Shown here: one piece after another, positions 14,946 to 55,280 of the stretch | Position numbering within the stretch: the stretch's first letter is position 1 | Layout of the letters: every line of letters begins with the position of its first letter | Source: a bacterium | GTDB lineage: Bacteria > UBA8248 | Length of the DNA: 64,000 bases | Reading direction: 5' to 3' | Assembly: GCA_965213625.1 (NCBI GenBank) | Contig: CBDBZU010000004.1 | Span: 2,432,001-2,496,000 of the forward strand | The notes under the pieces: generated by a model | Told to the model about the DNA's origin: nothing | Database searches by the model: none | The model's input: only the letters and a program-made list of their open reading frames with translations | Translations under genes and position numbers: made by a program

Positions 14946-15827
14946 CTATTTGCCCGAAGCGCGAATCCAGGCCTTGCCGATGGCGCGCGCGGTGTATACG
15001 CCCGCCAGATGACGTCTGAAGTCCGCTCCGGCGTAAAAATCATCGAGTGCGTCTACGCCTTCACCGGCCCCCGCAGCCGCTTTTCGGATCGATTCCGCAC
15101 TCGGCGCGCTGCCCATGAGGGCGTTTTCGACACTCGTGGCTCGATACGCTGCTGCGGCTACGCCCGTCACGCCGACGCGGATGGAGGCGACCACCCCGTT
15201 TCCGTCCAGCGCGAGTCGGGCCGCCACGCCGCACACCGCAAAGCCGCTGGCTTGCTGCGCCGCCTTGAGATACGCGCTTGAGCCCCGTACGGCCGAAGCT
15301 CGTATGCGGACGGAGGTGATAATCTCGCCCGCGCGTAGGGCCGTCTCGTATGCTCCGGTGAAGAAGTCATCGGCGCCGATGACGCGCTCGCCGTCCGCGC
15401 CCACGGCGGTGATTTCCGCTCCCGCCGCCAGCACGACCGCCGGGTAGTCCGCGGCGGGGTCGGCATGGGCGAGGGAGCCGCCCAGCGTCCCGCGGTTTCT
15501 CACCTGTACGTCGCCGATGGCGCCGGCCGCTTCGACGAGGGAGTGGCATTTCCCCCGAACCAGGGGTGACGCCTCGATTTCGGCGTGGGTCGTCATCGCG
15601 CCGATGCGAACTCCGCCCTCTGCTCCCTCTGATTCGGAGATGCCCGAGAGGTCCTCAAGGCCCGCGACGTCGATAAGGACGCCCGGATCGGCGAGCCTCG
15701 CCTTCATCACGGGCAGAAGGCTATGGCCTCCGGCGAGGACCCGTGCGTCTTCTCCATGCTCCCTGAGTTGCGCGAGAGCGTCTTCTAGCGATTGTGGTCG
15801 AACGTAGTCGAAAGAAGCTGGAATCAT
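14946..15827 (-). CDS. coxM: Xanthine dehydrogenase/CODH family FAD-binding medium subunit (CoxM/CutM)
   Basis: MIPASFDY.RP, LAGGHSLLP, QVRNRGTLGGSLAHADPAAD. Confidence 0.92.
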   Translation of the reverse strand: MIPASFDYVRPQSLEDALAQLREHGEDARVLAGGHSLLPVMKARLADPGVLIDVAGLEDLSGISESEGAEGGVRIGAMTTHAEIEASPLVRGKCHSLVEAAGAIGDVQVRNRGTLGGSLAHADPAADYPAVVLAAGAEITAVGADGERVIGADDFFTGAYETALRAGEIITSVRIRASAVRGSSAYLKAAQQASGFAVCGVAARLALDGNGVVASIRVGVTGVAAAAYRATSVENALMGSAPSAESIRKAAAGAGEGVDALDDFYAGADFRRHLAGVYTARAIGKAWIRASGK

Positions 15828-15829
15828 AC

Positions 15830-18157
15830 TTAAGCCCTCTTCTCGGCGATGGCGCGCCACAGTTTTTCGGGGCGCAGCGGCATGTCGATGTGCGTGATAC
15901 CGAATGGCGAAAGCGCGTCGAGCACGGCGTTCACCACGGCGGGTGTGGAGCCGATGGTGCCGGCCTCACCCACGCCCTTCGCGCCCAGCGGGTTCACGTC
16001 CGTCGGCGTGGTGGTGTGCAGAAGCTCGAAGCGTGGCAGCCTGTTCGCCTTAGGCAAAGCGTAGTGCATGAACGATGCGTTCAGCGGCTGCCCGCCCTCG
16101 CCGTAAATCATCTCTTCTTCCAGCGCCTGTCCCAACCCCTGGGCGATGCCGCCGTGGATCTGCCCGTGCACGAGCAGCGGGTTGATCATGTTGCCCACGT
16201 CATCCACCGCCACGTAGCGGAGAATTTCCACATCGCCCGTTTCCGGGTCGACCTCGGCCAGTACGATATGCGTCCCGAAGGGGAAGGTGAAGTTGCTCGG
16301 CTCAAAGAAGTGGGTTTCCTCGAGGCCCGGATCGGTGTCTTCGGGAAGCGCGATGGCACTGTAGGCCATCATCGCGATCTCGGCGAAGCCGGCCGATTTC
16401 TCGGGTGCGCTCCTGACGAATACTTTGCCGTCCTCGAATTCGATGTCGTTCTCGTCCGCCTCGAATTCCATCGCCGCGAACTTGGCCATCTTGGCTCGCA
16501 CCTTGTCGCGCGCGTAGACGACCGCCGAGCCGCCGACCACGGTACCCCGGCTGCCGAAAGTGCCCACGCCGTAGGGCACGACGTCGGTGTCTCCATGGAT
16601 GACGGTCACGTCGTTCGTGTCGATGCCGAGACCGTCCGCCACGATCTGGGCGAATGACGTCTGTTGGCCCTGCCCGTGGGGCGATGCGCCCGAAAAAACG
16701 GTGGCCTTGCCGGTGGGCTCCACGCGTACCCGCGCGCTCTCCCAGCCCTGGCCGCCCAGTGCGGCGGAGGGTCCCATGCCGCAAATCTCGACGTAGGTCG
16801 AAAAGCCGATTCCCAGATATCTGCCGTCTTTTCTGGCTTCTTCCTGCTGCGTGCGCATGGCGGAGTAATCCGCCGCTTCGAGCGCGAGGTCGAGCGCCTG
16901 ATGGTAATCCCCGCTGTCGTAGCTGAGGCCGGCGGACGTGCTGAAGGGGAACTCGGATTTGTCCGGGAAATTTTTGCGCCTGATTTCCACGGGGTCCATG
17001 CCCAGCTCTATCGCCGCGATGTCCATCATGCGTTCCAGGATATATGTCGCCTCGGGACGGCCAGCGCCCCGGTAGGCGTCGGTCGCCACCTTGTTGGTGA
17101 ACACGCCGGTGGCGTTCATCTCGATGTTCTCGATTTTGTAGGGGCCGGGCAGCATCAAACCCGTCAGCGTAAAGATGGCCACGGTGAGCAACTGGTAGTA
17201 GGCCCCGCAATCGGCGAGCACGTTGTAGCGGAACGCGGTGATGGTGCCGTCGTTCTTGAGGCCCATTTCGACATCGCCCACCTGGCCGCGCCCGTGGATG
17301 GTGGTCATGAAGTTCTCGGAACGGCTTTCCACCCACTTGATCGGCACGCCGAGTTCGCGCGAGACGAAGGCGGCCAGCGCCTCTTCGCGGTAGATGTTGA
17401 GCTTGCTGCCGAAGCCGCCGCCTACTTCTGGGGCGATGACGCGCATGCGGTTTTCCGGCATCCCGATCTGGAGCGCCACCAGCGTGCGCACCTTGTGCGG
17501 CACCTGGGTGGAGGTCCAGATCGTCAACTTGTCCTCACCGGGGAGGTAGTGGGCCAGAACGCCTCTGGGCTCGAGTGCCAGCGGGGCGACTCTGGCGTTG
17601 GTGATTTTCTCCTTGACGATGACGTCGGCCTCACTCATGCCGGCTTCCACGTCGCCGCCTGCGATTCCCCACTTGAACGCCTCGTTGCTCTCATAGGCGT
17701 CGTGCACCTTGGGAGAGCCGGACTCGATAGCAGCTTCCAGGTCCACCACGGCGTCGAGCGGTTCGTAGTCGATATCAACCAAGTCCGCCGCGTCGCGCGC
17801 GCCGTAGCGCGTCTCGGCAATCACCGCGACGACTGGCTCGCCCGCGAACAGCGTCTGTTTATCGGCCAGTATCGGCTGCTCGGGAACCTTGGCGTCGGGT
17901 ACGAGGCCGCCCACGGGAACGGGGCCGATGCCCTTTGTTTCCTCGTGCGTGTAGACGGCGACGACGCCTTCCGCCGCGGCCGCCTTGGAGACGTCGACCG
18001 AGCGTATATTGGCTTTGCCGTACGGGCTTCTCACCACCGCCATGTGCAGGGTGCCGGTTGGGTTGAAATCGTCCACGTAGTGGGCGAGGCCTTGAATGAG
18101 ACGCGGATCGTCTCGTCTTTTGATTGGTGCGCCGATGAATTTGGGTGCCTGGGCCAT
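15830..18157 (-). CDS. coxL: Molybdopterin-binding large subunit, form II CoxL/CutL-like Mo hydroxylase
   Basis: VGGGFGSK, active-site loop AYRGAGRPEA, PHGQG, GQIHGGIAQG, AKGVGEAG. Confidence 0.92.
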   Translation of the reverse strand: MAQAPKFIGAPIKRRDDPRLIQGLAHYVDDFNPTGTLHMAVVRSPYGKANIRSVDVSKAAAAEGVVAVYTHEETKGIGPVPVGGLVPDAKVPEQPILADKQTLFAGEPVVAVIAETRYGARDAADLVDIDYEPLDAVVDLEAAIESGSPKVHDAYESNEAFKWGIAGGDVEAGMSEADVIVKEKITNARVAPLALEPRGVLAHYLPGEDKLTIWTSTQVPHKVRTLVALQIGMPENRMRVIAPEVGGGFGSKLNIYREEALAAFVSRELGVPIKWVESRSENFMTTIHGRGQVGDVEMGLKNDGTITAFRYNVLADCGAYYQLLTVAIFTLTGLMLPGPYKIENIEMNATGVFTNKVATDAYRGAGRPEATYILERMMDIAAIELGMDPVEIRRKNFPDKSEFPFSTSAGLSYDSGDYHQALDLALEAADYSAMRTQQEEARKDGRYLGIGFSTYVEICGMGPSAALGGQGWESARVRVEPTGKATVFSGASPHGQGQQTSFAQIVADGLGIDTNDVTVIHGDTDVVPYGVGTFGSRGTVVGGSAVVYARDKVRAKMAKFAAMEFEADENDIEFEDGKVFVRSAPEKSAGFAEIAMMAYSAIALPEDTDPGLEETHFFEPSNFTFPFGTHIVLAEVDPETGDVEILRYVAVDDVGNMINPLLVHGQIHGGIAQGLGQALEEEMIYGEGGQPLNASFMHYALPKANRLPRFELLHTTTPTDVNPLGAKGVGEAGTIGSTPAVVNAVLDALSPFGITHIDMPLRPEKLWRAIAEKRA

Positions 18158-18160
18158 CTC

Positions 18161-18643
18161 TTATTCCCTCATCTGAGCCGCCGCCGCGGATATGGCGTCG
18201 ACGATGTTTTGATAACCCGTGCAGCGGCATATGTTGCCTTCGATGCCGTGCCTGATTTCCTCGTCCGTCGGATCGGAGTTGGTCGCAATGAGCTGGTTCG
18301 CCGTCAGGATCATGCCCGGTGTGCAGAAGCCGCATTGCAATCCGTGTTTTTCCCAGAACTGCTCTTGAAGCGGATGGAGCTGATCCCCATTGGCGAGTCC
18401 CTCGATGGTCGTGACCGCGCAGCCATCCGCCTGCGCGGCCAGGACAGTGCAGCTTTTCACCGCCTTGCCGTCCATCAGGACGGTGCATGCTCCGCAAATC
18501 GAGGTTTCACACGCGATGTGCGTGCCTGTCAGGCCGGCGTCATCGCGCAACAGGTGAACAAGAAGGGTTCTGGGTTCCACGTCGAACGTCCGGCTCTCGC
18601 CGTTGATGCTGATATTGATTTCCAAGGTCTTCGGGCCCCCCAC
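18161..18643 (-). CDS. coxS: [2Fe-2S] small subunit (CoxS/CutS)
   Basis: CETSICGAC...C, QCGFCTPG, NICRCTGY. Confidence 0.93.
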   Translation of the reverse strand: MGGPKTLEINISINGESRTFDVEPRTLLVHLLRDDAGLTGTHIACETSICGACTVLMDGKAVKSCTVLAAQADGCAVTTIEGLANGDQLHPLQEQFWEKHGLQCGFCTPGMILTANQLIATNSDPTDEEIRHGIEGNICRCTGYQNIVDAISAAAAQMRE

Positions 18644-48526: not shown

Positions 48527-49282
48527 TCAAGATCTACAGATGGTGAGCAGGTGCACCGCCTCGGCGCCCGCCTTTTTGAGTTCCCGTGCGCAGGCGGAGG
48601 CGGTCGAACCGGTCGTGACGACGTCGTCTACCAGGATGCACGTGGCCGCTTCGAGCCTTTGGCGCGCCACCTTGGGTCGAATCCGGAAGACACCCCGCAT
48701 GTTCCGGCGCCGCTCCCTTGCGGAGAGGCCGGTCTGCGAGCGGGTATCCTTTGCGCGCTCAAGAAAATCCGCGTGGGGTTTGTCCAGGCATTCCGCCGTC
48801 ATGAGGGCGAGCAGCATCGCCTGATCGAAACCTCTCGTCTTCCAGCGGGCGGGGTCGATAGGCACGTGCGTCACTACCACGTTCCTGGCTTCTTCATTTA
48901 CGCCGAATTCGTCCGTCGCGAGCCTGGCGAGATGGGGAGCGAACTCGCGCGCGAGTTTCGTGAAGCCCTGGAACTTGAAGAGGTGGACGGATTCCCGCAG
49001 CGAGTCCTCATAGGCGCCGATGGCGCGGACCATGTCGTAGTGATGCCCGTTTTCGAGGCAATCCGCACAAACATGGGTCGGGGAATGGGCGAGGGTGGTC
49101 AGGGAATGAAACGGATTTCCGCAACGAGGGCACCAGGGCGGCTCGAAGCGTTCGAAGGCGTCCGTGCAAGGCGTGCATATCGCCTGTGGATCGCCGATTT
49201 GCATGGAAGCCGAACACAAGAGGCATTTCGGGGGGATGAGGAAATCAATTGCTGCGCCGATGATCCTGCGGAGGTAACCCAT
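48527..49282 (-). CDS. comF: ComF family amidophosphoribosyltransferase-like protein
   Basis: Double Zn-ribbon Cys pairs, RGFDQ, Q.GL...ER..N, LVDDVVTTGST. Confidence 0.9.
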   Translation of the reverse strand: MGYLRRIIGAAIDFLIPPKCLLCSASMQIGDPQAICTPCTDAFERFEPPWCPRCGNPFHSLTTLAHSPTHVCADCLENGHHYDMVRAIGAYEDSLRESVHLFKFQGFTKLAREFAPHLARLATDEFGVNEEARNVVVTHVPIDPARWKTRGFDQAMLLALMTAECLDKPHADFLERAKDTRSQTGLSARERRRNMRGVFRIRPKVARQRLEAATCILVDDVVTTGSTASACARELKKAGAEAVHLLTICRS

Positions 49283-49361: not shown

Positions 49362-50507
49362 TTAAGATTTTCTTTTGAGTTGCACTCTCTTGCTGCCTGC
49401 GCCCTCGCCCAGCGCGCCGCCCTTGCGGCGGTGACGGATGAGTTCGGCGACGATGGCGACCCCAATTTCGCCCGGCGTATCGGCGCCGATGTCCAGTCCG
49501 ATGGGCGCATGGACGCGCTCGATGAGTTCGCCTCTGTCGTAGCCCTTGTCCTGAAGATGGCGATAGGTGAGCAGCACTTTGCTTTTGGAGCCGATCATCC
49601 CGATGTAGCGCGCGGGTGTCTTCATCGCCCATTCGAGGACGACCTCGTCGTTCGAATGGCCCCGGGTGATGATGGCGAGATAATCGGACTCATCGACCGG
49701 AATTTTCTCGAAAATTTCAGGGCATTCTCCGACGAAGAACGATTCCGCCATCGGGAAGCGCTCCTTGTTGGCGAACGAGGGCCTGTCCTCGACAATCGAA
49801 ACCCGGAAACCTGCGAGATAGGCCGCCTGCGCGACGCAGAATGAGACGTGCCCGCCGCCGAATATATAGACGAGTGGCTGGCCGGAAATGGGTTCGACAA
49901 AAATTTCGGTTGCCCCTTCGAGCGTGGGTCTTTTTCCGCTCGCGCGCGCGGCGTCCGTGTTGAACTGCAGGAGTGTGGGGCTGCCGTTTCGGATGATTTG
50001 CGTGCTCTCCGCCCAGATCTCCGTGGAATAGGTGGGAATCTCGCCCACGGCGCTGCCGTCGCGCCTGAAGAGCATTTTTCTGGCTTCCGGCGCCGGGACC
50101 TCGAGATCGCCCGGCTGAACGATGGTCGCCAGCGCCGCGCTGCCGCCCTGGTTTCTGATCTGGTTGATCTCATCGAGCAACTCTTCCTGAAATGCCTGGA
50201 AAGGTTCCACGAGTATCTCCACGACGCCACCGCATATGTGGCCGCTGTCTTCGGCTTCCTGCTGGGTGAGGTCGAACCTCAGCTTTTCGGGTTCGCCCGA
50301 CTCGAGGACGCTCATCGCGGTTTCCCACACTTCGGCTTCGAGACAACCGCCCCCGACGGTGCCTTCCGTGCTGCCGTCTTCGCGCACGAGCATCTTCGCA
50401 TCGCCGCTCATGGGCGCGGACCCCTTTCGAGCAACGACGGTGGCGAGCGCGCCGCCCTGGCCGTCTTCCTTGAGCTTTGCCATCTCCCTGAATACGTCCT
50501 TGCTCAT
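49362..50507 (-). CDS. xdhC: XdhC/CoxF family molybdenum cofactor insertion chaperone
   Basis: LATVV..KGSAP, GTVGGGCLE, CGG, FGGGHV, TRGHSND, YIGMIGS, APIGLDIGA.TPGEI. Confidence 0.92.
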   Translation of the reverse strand: MSKDVFREMAKLKEDGQGGALATVVARKGSAPMSGDAKMLVREDGSTEGTVGGGCLEAEVWETAMSVLESGEPEKLRFDLTQQEAEDSGHICGGVVEILVEPFQAFQEELLDEINQIRNQGGSAALATIVQPGDLEVPAPEARKMLFRRDGSAVGEIPTYSTEIWAESTQIIRNGSPTLLQFNTDAARASGKRPTLEGATEIFVEPISGQPLVYIFGGGHVSFCVAQAAYLAGFRVSIVEDRPSFANKERFPMAESFFVGECPEIFEKIPVDESDYLAIITRGHSNDEVVLEWAMKTPARYIGMIGSKSKVLLTYRHLQDKGYDRGELIERVHAPIGLDIGADTPGEIGVAIVAELIRHRRKGGALGEGAGSKRVQLKRKS

Positions 50508-50538
50508 TCCCTGCTCCGCCTACGAGAAGTGATGATCT

Positions 50539-51366
50539 CTACGCATCCGGCGTAATCCGTAAGATAACTTCACATACGTTGTTAATACAAGATGTGAAGA
50601 GGATTCCGTCCGCCGGGCCATGAGGCTTGCCTGCAAACTTCCATACAATATATGCGATTTCTCGTAATTTTTCCAGTGAGGTCTCCATATCGGCCTTGTT
50701 CACGACGATCCACTTGCACGTTCCCTCTTCGACCTTATGAAAAAGGCCGTCAGGATGTGCGCACAGTTTCCCGACAGCATGGGGCGTAATTTCCTCACCG
50801 GTTCTAATTCCGCAGATCCGCGCGAGCGCCTCGGGACGAAAAACGTGCGCCTTATCCAAGGTCGCGCCCAGCGCGTCGAATCCAACAACGCCCAATACAA
50901 TGTCGAGATTTTCGGGCAATACGGGTTCATCGGGTCCCGGCGTTTTGATGGGCAATCTTCTGGCTCCGTCCGCCTCGATGAGCATGAGGGCGCCTGGGAG
51001 CCTCAGGCGGGTGATTTCCGAGGGTGTGAAACCGCTCAGCTTCATGCGCTGTTCGCTCTCATGGCCCGGAACCGGGGCTATCCCCTCTCGCCTGCGAGCG
51101 AACCAGGATATGCCGCATGCGTTCATATAGGGTTTGAGGTTATTTGAGAGGGTCTCGGCGTCGCCCAAAGCGAGTTGGAGTTTTTCTTCCGGCAGCGGCG
51201 CGAAAATCTTCGTTGTAGTCGTGAGAATTGCAGGTTTTCCAATTTGCGCATGAAACTGCCTGGCGATGGCCGTCAGCAGGCTCGTTTTCCCGCCACCGCC
51301 GACCGCCGCGACGCTCTGGCCTGGCGTGATGCCGAGAGAACGGACAACGTCTTCTCCCGTTACCAA
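50539..51366 (-). CDS. yqeC: YqeC selenium-dependent hydroxylase accessory protein
   Basis: VGGGGKTS, TTTTKI, IEADGARRLPIK.P..DEP..P, VVG.DALG, VNKAD. Confidence 0.88.
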   Translation of the reverse strand: MVTGEDVVRSLGITPGQSVAAVGGGGKTSLLTAIARQFHAQIGKPAILTTTTKIFAPLPEEKLQLALGDAETLSNNLKPYMNACGISWFARRREGIAPVPGHESEQRMKLSGFTPSEITRLRLPGALMLIEADGARRLPIKTPGPDEPVLPENLDIVLGVVGFDALGATLDKAHVFRPEALARICGIRTGEEITPHAVGKLCAHPDGLFHKVEEGTCKWIVVNKADMETSLEKLREIAYIVWKFAGKPHGPADGILFTSCINNVCEVILRITPDA

Positions 51367-53132
51367 GTGCGGCTCTCCAAGCCGCCGAGCAGTTCACGCC
51401 TCAGGATGTTCACGAGTTCGGTGGAGAGCTGGGAGAGGTCCTGCACTACGATGTGGTTGGGGTAAATTTGCTCCACGAAGGGGTCCACCACACCGACGCC
51501 GATGACGCGGACGCCGAGTTTCTGCAGCCGGTTCACCGTGTTGACGAGGTGGGTCGCATCTCCGTTGGGCTGGCCGTCAGAGGTGATGATGATGATTTTC
51601 TCTTCCTCGGGCCGCTGGATGAGCCTGCGGTAGGCGAAGAGCAGGTGTTCTTCGTCCCAGTTGTTGAAGCGGGGATAGATGTTGACGAGCCTGTTCTTGA
51701 CCTGGGCGAAATGATCCTCGAAACCCTTGTAGATGCGATGCTGGAGCGGGGAGTGGCGGATGTGGCGGAACTTGAATGCCGGTATGTGGCCCAGGGCCGC
51801 CGCCATGGCGGCTTCAGAACTCTCGGTGGAGTAACCGATGACCTCGAAGGGTACTTCGAGGCGGTCGAGCGCTTCGGCGAAGAAGATGGTCGCCTCCCTG
51901 GCGGCCATGTACTTCGACTCGCGGTTCATGCTGCCGCTCTCGTCCACGAGCAGCGTGAAGCACACATCGAGCTTTTCGGGCTCTTCTTTCCGGTGGAAGA
52001 GATGGAATTTCCCCAGCCTTTGCTTCCACAGTTTGGGGAGATTCAGCTTGCCCGAGCGATGCGACCCGCTGAAGCGGGTGTAGGTTCTCTCCTGGATGAT
52101 CTGCATCAGCTTCCAGACCAGCACCTTGATGTGGCTGCCCGCATTATCGATGACCGCCGCGTATTCCTCGGTCTTGCCCTCGGGTGGTAATACGATGGAC
52201 CTCTCGTCGGGATGATCTGCAGTGGGGTGGATTTCCTTCTTGTTCCCTTCGAGTTCGAACCAGGGTGCTGCCCAGTGCCCGAGCGCTGCGAGTTCCTCGG
52301 GACTCAGTTCGACCTCCTCGCCCACATCTTCTTCGTTGATTTCCTCGGTAGCCTCGGGGTGAAGCATTTCGAGGGCTTCATCGTCGTCGCCCTCGAGGTT
52401 CTGGCTCTCGATTTTCTGCAGAATCTCTTCGGGAACCTCCGAGAGGTCCTGATCCTCATTCATCCGGGAGAGTTGCTCTTCGGTGAGATAGCGCTGGATG
52501 GCGTTGTAGATTTCATTGGCGCAATCAAAGGCGGTTTTTGGGTCATCGGCGGCGCAGGCGCGGTCTATCAGCGGGATGAGCCTGTGAAAAATCTGGACGA
52601 CGGCGGTATCGAACCAGGCCGCGGGCAAATCCCCGGGCCGCGAGGAGGGGACGCCGGGCGTCTGTCCGATTCCGGCGAGATAGATTCCCCACTGAATCTG
52701 GAGAAACAAGGGGAGTTGTCCGCTCATCTGGTTGCGTTCGGCCGCCTCAATGGCCGGGAGAATGAAGGCGCGGAAATTTTTCTTTGTGCCGGGCAGCGAT
52801 TCAGCGAGGCGGTTTTCGCACCGCGCGTCCTCGAGTGTGTGCCATATGTGGAAAAGTCCCGGCCTCTCGCGATTCGCGAGCGCGGCGCGCCCCGCCCAGC
52901 GGAACGTCCCCTGGATTTTGTGGGCCACCTCGATGAGCGTCATGCCCTTCTGGAACCTGAGGACGTGCTCGTCGTTCAGGTCGCCGCCCAGGCGCGCCAG
53001 GGTTTGTTCGGGGTCTTCGACGTGAATGGCGTCATCGCCGTTCTTCGCCTTTGGGCCGAAGTTCAGTGCGAGTTCGTAATCGTGCGCTGTCACCTGTGCG
53101 AGCGCTTCGAGACGGGCGCGTCGGCGTTCCAT
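51360..53132 (-). CDS. VWA-domain protein (NorD/CbbO/CobT-like)
   Basis: N-terminal LEDARCE motif, acidic linker, SGKLN, MIDAS LLVDESGSM...SDGQP, IGVGV. Confidence 0.85.
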   Translation of the reverse strand: MERRRARLEALAQVTAHDYELALNFGPKAKNGDDAIHVEDPEQTLARLGGDLNDEHVLRFQKGMTLIEVAHKIQGTFRWAGRAALANRERPGLFHIWHTLEDARCENRLAESLPGTKKNFRAFILPAIEAAERNQMSGQLPLFLQIQWGIYLAGIGQTPGVPSSRPGDLPAAWFDTAVVQIFHRLIPLIDRACAADDPKTAFDCANEIYNAIQRYLTEEQLSRMNEDQDLSEVPEEILQKIESQNLEGDDDEALEMLHPEATEEINEEDVGEEVELSPEELAALGHWAAPWFELEGNKKEIHPTADHPDERSIVLPPEGKTEEYAAVIDNAGSHIKVLVWKLMQIIQERTYTRFSGSHRSGKLNLPKLWKQRLGKFHLFHRKEEPEKLDVCFTLLVDESGSMNRESKYMAAREATIFFAEALDRLEVPFEVIGYSTESSEAAMAAALGHIPAFKFRHIRHSPLQHRIYKGFEDHFAQVKNRLVNIYPRFNNWDEEHLLFAYRRLIQRPEEEKIIIITSDGQPNGDATHLVNTVNRLQKLGVRVIGVGVVDPFVEQIYPNHIVVQDLSQLSTELVNILRRELLGGLESRTW

Positions 53133-53146
53133 GCCTCATCTCCCGG

Positions 53147-54031
53147 CTAGAAGTGGTTGTCTACGATATCCTCGAGCACTTTGGCGTCGAAAGAATTGAC
53201 CTTGCTGAAGATGGTAGAGATGGCGGCCTCCATGGGGTCGAACTGTGCCGCCATACGCGCCCAGTCGATGAGACGCCGGGTGCTGAACGTGCAGAATACC
53301 TTTTCGTTCAGCATGGCCTCGCGCACGTCGTGGCCCACGCGCACCATGCGCTTGATGAGCTCCTCATCGCGGTTCCCGCTCTGCTGCATGATGACCTCGA
53401 CTTCCGCGTCGAAGGGCAGGTAGTTCATCTTGACGGTGACGGGGAATCGATCCAGTAGCGCCTCGTTCAGGGGCTTGGTGCCCCCGTATCTGCGATCCTC
53501 ATGCGGGTTCATGCTGGCGAAAAGCCTGAAATTCGGATGAGGCTTGATGATGCGGCCGTCGTATTCGGATAAGACGATCATGCGGTCGTCGTCGAGCAGG
53601 CTGTGCAGGCAAAAGGCGATTTCGGGCAGGCACGCGTTGATCTCGTCGATAAGGAGCCAATCGCCCGACTGCATGGCGTCGACCAGGATGCCGTTCACCC
53701 AGTAGGTGCCCTGTTCGTTGATCATCAGTTTGCCCACGAACTCATCGACCGTTGTCATGCCGTTCAGGTTCACGCGACGGAAGCCGTTGTTCGTCATGTG
53801 GGCAAGGTGGCGCACCGAGAGGGTTTTGCCGACGCCGGTCTCCCCCACGAGGAGGACGGGGAGGTTCTTGCTCACCGCCCACGCGATGCGCTCGAGCGCA
53901 TCGCCCGCCGCGAGATAGAATTGGGTCGGAGGAACGAAGGAATTCCCGTTCGACTCATTGATCGGAATTTCGCTTCGCCCGATGCGGTAGGCGCCGTTTT
54001 CCACCGTTTCACTCAAAATTTCGGTACTCAA
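53147..54031 (-). CDS. MoxR-class AAA+ ATPase (CbbQ/NirQ/NorQ/CobS-like)
   Basis: Walker A GETGVGKT, Walker B LLIDEIN, HPNFRLFASMNP, LNEALLDRF, sensor STRRL. Confidence 0.9.
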   Translation of the reverse strand: MSTEILSETVENGAYRIGRSEIPINESNGNSFVPPTQFYLAAGDALERIAWAVSKNLPVLLVGETGVGKTLSVRHLAHMTNNGFRRVNLNGMTTVDEFVGKLMINEQGTYWVNGILVDAMQSGDWLLIDEINACLPEIAFCLHSLLDDDRMIVLSEYDGRIIKPHPNFRLFASMNPHEDRRYGGTKPLNEALLDRFPVTVKMNYLPFDAEVEVIMQQSGNRDEELIKRMVRVGHDVREAMLNEKVFCTFSTRRLIDWARMAAQFDPMEAAISTIFSKVNSFDAKVLEDIVDNHF

Positions 54032-54882
54032 TTCGCATACTCCATGGCTGATACGCCGAACAGAAACATCATGATGGCTTCGAGCGCGCCACCGCCGATG
54101 GCGCGCGATTTATCGGATATCGTGTGGCAATGGGAGGGCTCGGCTCTCGGGTCGACGTCACCCACCTTGAAGCCCTCGCTCACCTCGATGCCGTCTCTAA
54201 GGAGACCTCGCAAAACGCCGTCAATGGAGGAGCGAACCTCCGCATCATTCACGCGGGCGACGACCTCTCCCTCGCTCACGACGTCGCCGATCCTGGCGAT
54301 GGAGGTGAAGACGCCGGCATTGGGCGCGCGCAGCAGCCGCTCGGTGGTGTAGCCGCCGATGGGGCCCGGAATGCCCGTGTTGGCCTTCGCTGCTCCCTCC
54401 AGAATCACCCGCCCCAGGTCGTGGCCCCGGGAGGTCTCGATGACGGCGTGGCAATCTGCGCCGGCCGTGAAGCCCGGCCCCAGGCCGACGACGACTTCCG
54501 CGTCCTCGATTCGAGTACCGAGGTTTCGCTTCGCAAGAATCGCGTCTACCACGGCGGCGGGCTGGAGGTGATGTATCACCTCGGCTTGCGGGTCCACCAT
54601 CACCGGAATCGAACCCGCCTCCAGGATGGCGCGCGCGCGCGTCGATTTCTCTTCTGCGGACTCCCCGTCCGCCTGGGCGGAGGTAACGCCTTCCACTCTC
54701 CACTCATCGGCGTATAGACACTCGGCAAAGGAGACGGTGCGCCTCACCATGGTGGGGTTTTCGATTTCGGTAATCGCGACCGGAAATCCCGCCCGGTATA
54801 GGCGGTGCGCCACTCCGGTGGCGAGGTCGCCGCCTCCCTTGAGGAGCACGAGCGTCTCGGCGATGGACCTGCGGCTGCTCAT
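54028..54882 (-). CDS. yqeB: YqeB selenium-dependent molybdenum hydroxylase system protein
   Basis: KGGGDLATGVA.RL, RRTVSF, DAILAKRNLGT, LGPGF.AG.D, ET.RGH.LG, NTG.PG, GVLRGL, KVGDVDPR, ISDKSRAIGG. Confidence 0.93.
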   Translation of the reverse strand: MSSRRSIAETLVLLKGGGDLATGVAHRLYRAGFPVAITEIENPTMVRRTVSFAECLYADEWRVEGVTSAQADGESAEEKSTRARAILEAGSIPVMVDPQAEVIHHLQPAAVVDAILAKRNLGTRIEDAEVVVGLGPGFTAGADCHAVIETSRGHDLGRVILEGAAKANTGIPGPIGGYTTERLLRAPNAGVFTSIARIGDVVSEGEVVARVNDAEVRSSIDGVLRGLLRDGIEVSEGFKVGDVDPRAEPSHCHTISDKSRAIGGGALEAIMMFLFGVSAMEYAN

Positions 54883-54887
54883 AGCGT

Positions 54888-55280
54888 CTAATCTTCCACG
54901 AAGGCGATCGCGTCTATCTCGATGAGCCACTCGGGTTTCGCCAGGCCGCTCACGACAATGAGCGTGCTCGCCGGGTAGGGTTCGCCGAAATATGTCTGCC
55001 GCACTTCCATGCATCCCGGGACATTCGCAGAGTCGGTGATATAGACCGTAAGGCGGATGATGTCCTCCATACCGGCGCCTGCTGCTTCAAGGGCGGCATT
55101 GATGTTCTCGTACACCTGGCGGGTCTGGGCCTTGATGTCATTGCCGCCGACCGAATTGCCGTCCACGTCTACCGCCACCTGGCCCGCCAGCATGATGAGA
55201 TGTCCGTTCGATACCTTCCAGCCCGTGGAATACGCGGCGACCGGCTTCACTTTGTCCGAGTTGATTTGTTGTTTCGCCAT
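54888..55280 (-). CDS. RidA/YjgF/YER057c family protein
   Basis: AYS, AGQV, Q.RQ..ENI..L..AG, PAST..VS.L..PEWLIEIDAIA. Confidence 0.9.
   Translation of the reverse strand: MAKQQINSDKVKPVAAYSTGWKVSNGHLIMLAGQVAVDVDGNSVGGNDIKAQTRQVYENINAALEAAGAGMEDIIRLTVYITDSANVPGCMEVRQTYFGEPYPASTLIVVSGLAKPEWLIEIDAIAFVED

Follow-up and report, generated by a model that had tools for sequence, protein, structure and literature searches.

In the stretch of DNA analysed here (64,000 nt of contig CBDBZU010000004.1, assembly GCA_965213625.1; hereafter the window), a run of six minus-strand genes combines an AAA+ ATPase and a protein with a von Willebrand factor A (VWA) domain with YqeB and YqeC, two markers of selenium-dependent molybdenum (Mo) hydroxylases, and with a chaperone of the molybdenum cofactor (Moco). 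Comparison with related loci makes a role of the ATPase/VWA pair in Mo-hydroxylase maturation well supported at the level of sequence. The six open reading frames (ORFs) are listed below in transcriptional order, with coordinates of the whole window and inferred start codons.

54888-55280, minus strand: RidA/YjgF-family protein, the first gene of the operon (Pfam Ribonuc_L-PSP, 98.5 bits)
54028-54882, minus strand: YqeB (TIGR03309, 370.9 bits; cut-off 220)
53147-54031, minus strand: AAA+ ATPase, CobS-like motor, with a TTG start (AAA_5, 100.3 bits; CbbQ_C, 37.2 bits)
51360-53132, minus strand: VWA protein, CobT-like adaptor (CobT_C, 68.1 bits; VWA, 29.7 bits, cut-off 23.8)
50539-51366, minus strand: YqeC (TIGR03172, 159.7 bits, cut-off 73.05; Pfam YqeC, 116.4 bits)
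49362-50507, minus strand: XdhC-family Moco chaperone (Pfam XdhC_CoxI, 94.8 bits; XdhC_C, 126.7 bits)

The order RidA-YqeB-AAA+-VWA-YqeC-XdhC, spanning 49362-55280, was read from the ORF listing and the translations, and the genes are tightly spaced. The RidA ATG lies at 55280 with GGGAGA upstream of it (the longest RidA ORF extends to 55304), and 5 nt separate RidA from YqeB (tag-acgct-atg). The sequence TTGA is common to the YqeB stop and the ATPase start, the ATPase and the VWA gene are 14 nt apart, the VWA stop and the YqeC start overlap by 7 nt, and a gap of 31 nt leads on to XdhC. An earlier note on this DNA had described the six genes and their spacing from the letters alone, and the ORF listing and profile searches bore it out in every detail; the ATPase motifs it quoted (HPNFRLFASMNP, LNEALLDRF and STRRL) are likewise present in the translation. 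The 4-nt overlap of YqeB and ATPase is retained in 13 of 15 loci examined, with starts placed by script. Within the operon we found no terminator-like site on the minus strand, all seven sites found being on the plus strand, and a scan of the operon for promoters and terminators gave counts no higher than those in shuffled sequences.

With regard to selenium, YqeB marks the selenium-dependent molybdenum hydroxylase trait and scores above its curated cut-off, and YqeC, which carries a P-loop-like GGGGKTS motif, is the second marker of the selenium cofactor. The predicted structure of YqeB (predicted local distance difference test score, pLDDT, 88.7) combines a Rossmann-like N-terminal domain with a barrel resembling biotinyl/lipoyl carriers, the latter superimposing on 2d5d with a root-mean-square deviation of 1.4 Å across 68 residues. 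The resemblance is confined to single domains, as no whole-fold match to the model was found in the PDB (whole-protein template modelling score ≤0.32), and PDB sequence searches with YqeB and YqeC returned nothing below E 0.01. A His-Cys pair of YqeB, H251 and C252, is invariant among 14 orthologues and could be a selenium-handling site. The XdhC protein belongs to the XdhC family by both of its Pfam domains, which score well above their cut-offs; it stays below the cut-offs of the equivalog models (NF045664, 308.5 against 350 bits; TIGR02964, 113.5 against 161.6 bits). It is the only PF02625 match in a whole-genome search of the source genome, where tblastn found no XdhC paralogue either. RidA is optional, being found upstream of YqeB in 23 of the 31 related loci that include YqeB.

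The accessory set expected for selenium-dependent Mo hydroxylases, namely YqeB, YqeC, SelD and the hydroxylases themselves, is complete in the source genome. The earlier note had suggested looking for selD, and the gene is indeed present outside the window (G000:C4:1518852-1519814; 333.5 bits). It contains one in-frame TGA, so that the organism probably decodes selenocysteine and the presence of SelD alone is no proof of the selenium-cofactor trait. A whole-genome search with PF02738 listed 10 Mo large subunits, which puts the number of Mo hydroxylases at ten at least.

We next consider how the pair is placed in other genomes. A scan of contigs from one genome per species with an alignment of the VWA protein returned 80 loci, with 46 further relatives beyond these, and the returned loci were screened by tblastn with the proteins of the window. 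Three gene architectures were found. The first, (RidA)-YqeB-AAA-VWA-YqeC-XdhC, is that of the window and comprises 36 loci of its phylum, labelled Nitrospinota, Nitrospinaceae, Tectomicrobia or plain 'bacterium'. Twenty-nine of them hold the five core genes in order, and the other seven end at contig ends with a visible part that fits the same order, while the identity of the VWA protein falls from 98% to 52%. Because the order is kept in 29 of 36 related loci, the arrangement is not due to chance. The second architecture is YqeB-AAA-VWA alone, seen at five loci in a sister family of the window's phylum (VWA identity 41–46%) between unrelated genes, such as those for biotin synthesis and a rhodanese; YqeC-XdhC is located elsewhere in all five genomes. 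Since the sister family keeps the two parts separate, the window operon looks like two adjoining modules, YqeB-AAA-VWA and YqeC-XdhC. The earlier note had spoken of a pair embedded between yqeB and yqeC, which holds for the gene order and is better put as two modules side by side. The linkage to yqeBC and xdhC, on which the note had made its proposal depend, is thus kept in other genomes.

The third architecture is found in Chloroflexota, where genes for an FAD subunit, a small subunit and a split Mo subunit are followed by the ATPase, the VWA protein, further dehydrogenases and XdhC. The ATPase is here 62–73% identical to that of the window and the VWA protein 34–39% across most of its length. 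An orthologous split Mo subunit precedes the ATPase in 21 of 22 loci, by no more than 314 nt in 18 of them, and in 12 of 26 Chloroflexota loci XdhC is encoded by the same strand 6–8 kb further down. The N-terminal part of the split subunit aligns end to end with the 425-residue chain 3hrd_A, the large Mo subunit of nicotinate dehydrogenase, at 233 bits, compared with 164 bits for the next structure. We take 3hrd to be the Eubacterium barkeri enzyme that carries Mo-bound selenium. The split leaves a MoCoBD_1 part of 436 aa and a MoCoBD_2 part of 336 aa, a TAA being followed by an ATG (L073:6671-8992, L057:6536-8848 and 19 further loci). The idea that the subunit might be a read-through selenoprotein was rejected, given that the ATG follows directly on the TAA and that in 9 of 18 loci the reading frame changes between the two parts. 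Nicotinate dehydrogenase is described as selenium-dependent in a preprint.

What kind of machine the pair forms can be read from its domains and its nearest relatives. The ATPase is a MoxR/CobS-type member of the AAA_5 clade, with an AAA_5 domain and intact catalytic motifs: GETGVGKT, D129/E130, N175, R195 and S250-R253 are invariant in 12 orthologues drawn from all three gene contexts, and we take these to be the Walker A and B, sensor 1, arginine finger and sensor 2 motifs. In the VWA protein an acidic linker connects a conserved N-terminal domain to the VWA domain at the C terminus, whose metal ion-dependent adhesion site (MIDAS) is intact; D397, E398, S399, S401 and T436 are invariant and D519 nearly so in 19 sequences. 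Among solved single-domain structures the ATPase is nearest to CobS (9ujv, 105 bits), followed by NorQ (80 bits) and CbbQ (5c3c, 78.6 bits), and the family profile of the VWA protein matches CobT (9uka_G) with 100 bits over profile positions 93-564 of 572. As the earlier note had read from the motifs, the ATPase is of CbbQ/NorQ/CobS type and not of CoxD type, reaching only 25 bits with the CoxD-like ATPase of the same genome, and its partner has no VWA_CoxE match. Public records name homologues of the pair generically, as MoxR, AAA, CobS or midasin. The 294-aa ATPase is also 33–44% identical to single AAA modules of giant midasin-like proteins of 1982–7557 aa, and in a search of a representative library 149 of 150 proteins among the matches listed were giants of this size, the remaining one being an orthologue.

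With CobS and CobT as the nearest solved structures, the latter matched at nearly full length, and with some public records calling homologues 'cobaltochelatase CobS', one might suppose that the pair is a genuine cobaltochelatase motor that merely happens to lie in this operon. We regard this as very improbable. The ATPase reaches 95.9 bits with the CobS equivalog model TIGR01650 against a cut-off of 558.55, the VWA protein 60.2 bits with the CobT equivalog model TIGR01651 against a cut-off of 759.05, and no match to CobN (PF02514) was found in the source genome, which is 96.58% complete. In a maximum-likelihood tree of 17 rows that included annotated plasmid references, a small sample with long branches, the ATPases of the pair group in a single clade, whichever of the three gene contexts they come from (support 84/93). 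The two annotated rhizobial CobS proteins instead join orphan ATPases of Burkholderiales (84/96); the node that would join this group to the Mo-linked clade is unsupported (42/70), and NorQ-like sequences, GvpN and the genome's own CoxD-like ATPase fall outside the Mo-linked clade. Given the low equivalog scores, the lack of CobN, the separate clade and the conserved neighbourhood with YqeB or a Mo subunit, the two proteins are CobS/CobT-like, as far as sequence can tell, and not cobaltochelatase subunits. The earlier note had seen its proposal endangered by a pair that groups with CobS/CobT in a genome with cobN, and what we found is a separate clade and no CobN.

Pairs of this general type do occur in quite different surroundings. 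Two orphan pairs on Burkholderiales plasmids, of Caballeronia and Paraburkholderia (L106:9629-12476 and L112:5668-8618), have no Mo enzyme nearby and consist of a 400-aa ATPase, 35–38% identical to that of the window, and a second gene that carries the annotation 'cobalamin biosynthesis protein CobT'. Distant VWA relatives from Clostridia and an archaeon (L080-L093) showed no match to Mo hydroxylase, YqeB, YqeC or XdhC in their flanks; the two of these loci that were annotated lie in unrelated contexts, the one on a Hydrothermarchaeota contig beside HEPN/nucleotidyltransferase genes and the one from Clostridia beside a YqaJ recombinase. Such pairs, known from plasmids and prophages, together with the patchy occurrence in Chloroflexota (2 of 24 genomes in one family), would fit a pair that works on some unrelated protein or simply travels along with mobile DNA. 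We consider this improbable, since the orphans are distant (24–38% identity) and lie outside the clade. All loci within the clade lie in the setting of Mo hydroxylases, and the order of genes persists while the identity of the VWA protein falls from 98% to 34%. In the same tree, the Chloroflexota ATPases are sister to the group with the second architecture (82/95), inside the diversity of the window's phylum. This nesting hints at horizontal transfer of the pair into Chloroflexota, and both the patchy distribution there and the absence of the pair from 250 other sampled genomes of the class agree with it.

Next, we examined how the pair co-occurs with YqeB and with Mo hydroxylases. The window's phylum is represented by 51 genomes from 15 genera; 48 of them have the VWA protein and 49 have YqeB, the two mostly lying some 1 kb from each other. 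One genus, with two genomes of 2.1 Mb that are 95% complete, has neither the VWA protein nor YqeB and no XdhC or Mo large subunit either, but has kept a selenocysteine-containing SelD. What this loss connects the pair with is the Mo-hydroxylase system, and not selenium in itself. Of the pair-bearing Chloroflexota genomes, 23 of 25 have YqeB, compared with 153 of 250 other genomes in a class-wide sample, an enrichment (one-sided Fisher p ~0.001) that is overstated by the relatedness of the genomes and blurred by the incompleteness of metagenome-assembled ones. All five pair-bearing Chloroflexota genomes tested have a selenocysteine-containing SelD.

We favour the explanation that the pair is a CobS/CobT-type motor that gives access for the YqeB-dependent selenium ligand during Mo-hydroxylase maturation, a reading to which we give an even chance. 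According to this explanation, the pair would have been recruited from cobalt chelation to the maturation of Mo hydroxylases of the xanthine oxidase family. By analogy with CobST, NorQD and CoxDE, the N-terminal domain of the adaptor would dock on a hexameric ATPase ring and its VWA/MIDAS domain would grip the folded enzyme; ATP hydrolysis would then loosen the Mo subunit so that the buried Mo centre became reachable, the opened site would receive the YqeB-dependent, SelD-derived labile selenium ligand, and YqeC and XdhC would take care of the cofactor. Which protein the pair physically acts on, its part in a selenium step and the direction in which it works are all inferred. A more specific version, in which ring and MIDAS adaptor pry open a folded Mo hydroxylase and YqeB thereby gets to place the labile selenium ligand, for the first time or anew, and which would amount to an undescribed energy-dependent step of the selenium cofactor, is put forward tentatively, as somewhat less probable than the favoured explanation at large.

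Several lines of evidence lead to the favoured explanation. The linkage recurs in three contexts with invariant ATPase and MIDAS motifs, and the Chloroflexota pair adjoins a split Mo subunit whose nearest structure is the selenium-dependent nicotinate dehydrogenase. YqeB is enriched in pair-bearing genomes, and the operon holds the sole XdhC of a genome with at least ten Mo hydroxylases. CoxD and CoxE offer a precedent, in that they complete the Mo centre in a folded CO dehydrogenase. Lastly, the VWA protein and YqeB are present in nearly all genomes of the window's phylum and are both missing from one genus. In this phylum the motor is genetically tied to YqeB, so that access for the selenium ligand is the likeliest step there. 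A complex prediction of the VWA protein with YqeB, run without controls, scored 0.00 against a mark of 0.32 and speaks neither for nor against binding.

Other observations count against a selenium step of this kind. The correlated loss is a single event in which the whole set of Mo hydroxylases disappeared and SelD stayed, so selenium and Moco are inseparable in it. The pair is found in none of the 250 other sampled genomes of the Anaerolineae class, 153 of which have YqeB; the recurrence beside yqeB and yqeC that the earlier note had asked about therefore holds in the window's phylum and fails in this sample. In the Chloroflexota family with the pair in 2 of 24 genomes, YqeB is present in 16, including 14 of the 22 pair-less ones, and seven of the pair-less genomes have a paralogue of the split Mo subunit that is likewise split and 46–48% identical. 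Nor does the Chloroflexota pair lie beside YqeB and YqeC, which adjoin a different, unsplit Mo subunit. The support of the Mo-linked ATPase clade is only moderate (84/93) in a long-branched tree, and papers on the selenium-dependent hydroxylases of C. difficile and C. sporogenes name no such ATPase. Because most YqeB-bearing genomes are without the pair, and because the split subunit also occurs without it, the pair is an extra for certain enzymes or lineages and no general component of the YqeBC trait. Four pair-bearing Chloroflexota genomes (L094-L097 in G001-G004) have a separate row Mo subunit-YqeB-YqeC, and each of these four would therefore have two candidate selenium enzymes with different sets of helpers; a fifth has a YqeB fragment at a contig end beside YqeC.

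Some of the same observations suit a pair that serves general insertion or sulfuration of Moco together with XdhC, opening the apo-enzyme to the cofactor or to the usual sulfido ligand without being dedicated to selenium. Both the full operon and the Chloroflexota context have XdhC in their cluster, the only XdhC of the source genome sits in the operon with at least ten enzymes to serve, and Mo subunits, XdhC, YqeB and the pair were lost together from genomes that retained SelD. YqeB and YqeC are moreover encoded elsewhere in Chloroflexota, and CoxD works at a sulfuration step (PMC4240915). What makes us doubt this reading, though we take it more seriously than any other alternative, is the stand-alone YqeB-AAA-VWA unit with XdhC elsewhere in 5 of 5 genomes, along with the Chloroflexota client nearest to selenium-dependent nicotinate dehydrogenase and the enrichment of YqeB with the pair (23/25 against 153/250). 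The proposal of the earlier note, an apo-Mo hydroxylase opened by the pair to take up selenated Moco, goes further than these comparisons, which tie the pair to Mo-hydroxylase maturation and, in the window's phylum, to YqeB and do not separate a selenium step from insertion or sulfuration of Moco.

A further possibility is that the pair acts in repair and not in first assembly, as an activase like CbbQ/CbbO that reopens selenium-depleted or inhibited enzymes for reloading by YqeB. The CbbQ_C domain of the ATPase and its match to CbbQ (5c3c, 78.6 bits) would suit such an activity, as would the conserved adjacency to YqeB and the optional addition of the pair where YqeB is already present. The selenium ligand of these enzymes is furthermore labile, as stated in PMC11448449. 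On the other hand, the top-scoring relatives CobS and CobT drive insertion and not repair, and we consider a repair activase unlikely, though slightly less so than an unrelated client.

The genes that flank the operon are unrelated to it: a ComF-like gene and PdxA lie downstream, a divergent TetR regulator and acyl-CoA dehydrogenases upstream. The ComF/GntX-like phosphoribosyltransferase gene (48527-49282, minus strand) begins 79 nt past XdhC on the same strand. At a distance of 31 kb from the operon, the window contains a Mo hydroxylase, assigned by Pfam matches, that is one of at least ten candidate clients:

14946-18643, minus strand: three-subunit Mo hydroxylase, candidate client
18161-18643, minus strand: its 2Fe-2S subunit
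15830-18157, minus strand: its Mo subunit
14946-15860, minus strand: its FAD subunit

Elsewhere, a separate pair of CoxD/CoxE type (G000:C4:2991152-2994838) directly follows genes for FAD and 2Fe-2S subunits, and no XdhC-like CoxF/CoxI was found in the rest of the genome. A YqeC paralogue (G000:C4:599528-600313; Pfam YqeC, 112.6 bits; 27% identical to the operon copy) adjoins an iron alcohol dehydrogenase gene, with another Mo large subunit about 6 kb off. A supposed second SelD near this paralogue was rejected, being an AIR-synthase-family gene beside a thiamine-phosphate synthase gene.

The earlier note knew of no description of such a step for the YqeBC system, and the literature that we searched, with supplements and subscription journals outside its scope, agrees: no paper describes the pair in the context of selenium or Mo hydroxylases, none links selenium-dependent molybdenum enzymes with von Willebrand or AAA+ proteins, and none links yqeB with VWA or CobT. 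In a 2010 review (PMC2997495), yqeB and MoxR are both mentioned, separately. The labile selenium route to the Mo centre is the least understood of the four selenium pathways; YqeB is genetically required, YqeC is without a clear phenotype, and neither has a known activity (PMC11448449, 2024). A pair tied to YqeB in one phylum and to a nicotinate-dehydrogenase-like enzyme in another would make the selenium step open to mutation, at the Walker B and MIDAS sites, with a client operon that is already defined. If the more specific version, with the enzyme pried open for YqeB, is true, there would be a third route for finishing the active sites of Mo hydroxylases, beside the XdhC-mediated insertion of sulfurated Moco and CoxDEF. 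The clients of CobS/CobT-type motors would also extend past tetrapyrrole chelation. One genome here runs two unrelated AAA+/VWA pairs, of CoxDE and CobST type, for one enzyme family. The reach of the finding is limited by the restriction of the pair to uncultivated lineages and by its dispensability where YqeB works alone.

Among known systems, CoxD/CoxE/CoxF of Oligotropha carboxidovorans come close in that an AAA+ and a VWA protein are encoded together with an enzyme of the Mo hydroxylase family (PMC4240915; PMC2997495). CoxD and CoxE complete the Mo centre of CO dehydrogenase after the apo-enzyme has folded, CoxD acting at a sulfuration step (PMC4240915), and an XdhC-like protein acts alongside them (PMC4240915; PMC2997495). 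Unlike CoxE, the VWA protein of the operon has no VWA_CoxE (PF05762) match, for which the true CoxE of the genome scores 205 bits; in BLASTP the match of the operon ATPase to the CoxD-like one is limited to the Walker A region, and the VWA protein reaches 38 bits with CoxE. Moreover, CoxDEF add sulfur and copper, whereas the partners here are YqeB and YqeC.

The YqeB/YqeC/SelD trait is matched by both markers above cut-off and by SelD and many Mo hydroxylases in the genome, but its comparative genomics (PMC2276186; PMC5322559) includes no ATPase or VWA component, and the 2024 account of selenium-dependent hydroxylases (PMC11448449) makes no mention of an ATPase or a chaperone. With NorQ and CbbQ the operon ATPase shares the AAA_5 and CbbQ_C architecture. 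NorQ/NorD and CbbQ/CbbO likewise work through a VWA/MIDAS adaptor and remodel enzymes for metal insertion or repair, which means iron insertion into NO reductase for the former and activation of Rubisco for the latter. They differ in that their scores lie under those of CobS, NorQ-like sequences fall outside the clade and the clients are others; neither norB nor Rubisco genes are present in the annotated flanks of the operon, a genome-wide search for them not having been made. The closest likeness is to CobS/CobT of CobNST, which have the same two-protein layout and an adaptor with N-terminal domain, acidic linker and VWA domain. In the model proposed for CobST, the adaptor is held on the ring by its N-terminal domain, and in the presence of ATP its VWA domain shifts to the pore (bioRxiv 10.64898/2026.10.09.757910). 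The pair of the operon departs from it in having YqeB, YqeC, XdhC or a Mo subunit for partners and no CobN. Taken together, the finding belongs with the AAA+/VWA maturation pairs of metalloenzymes, which are a known kind.

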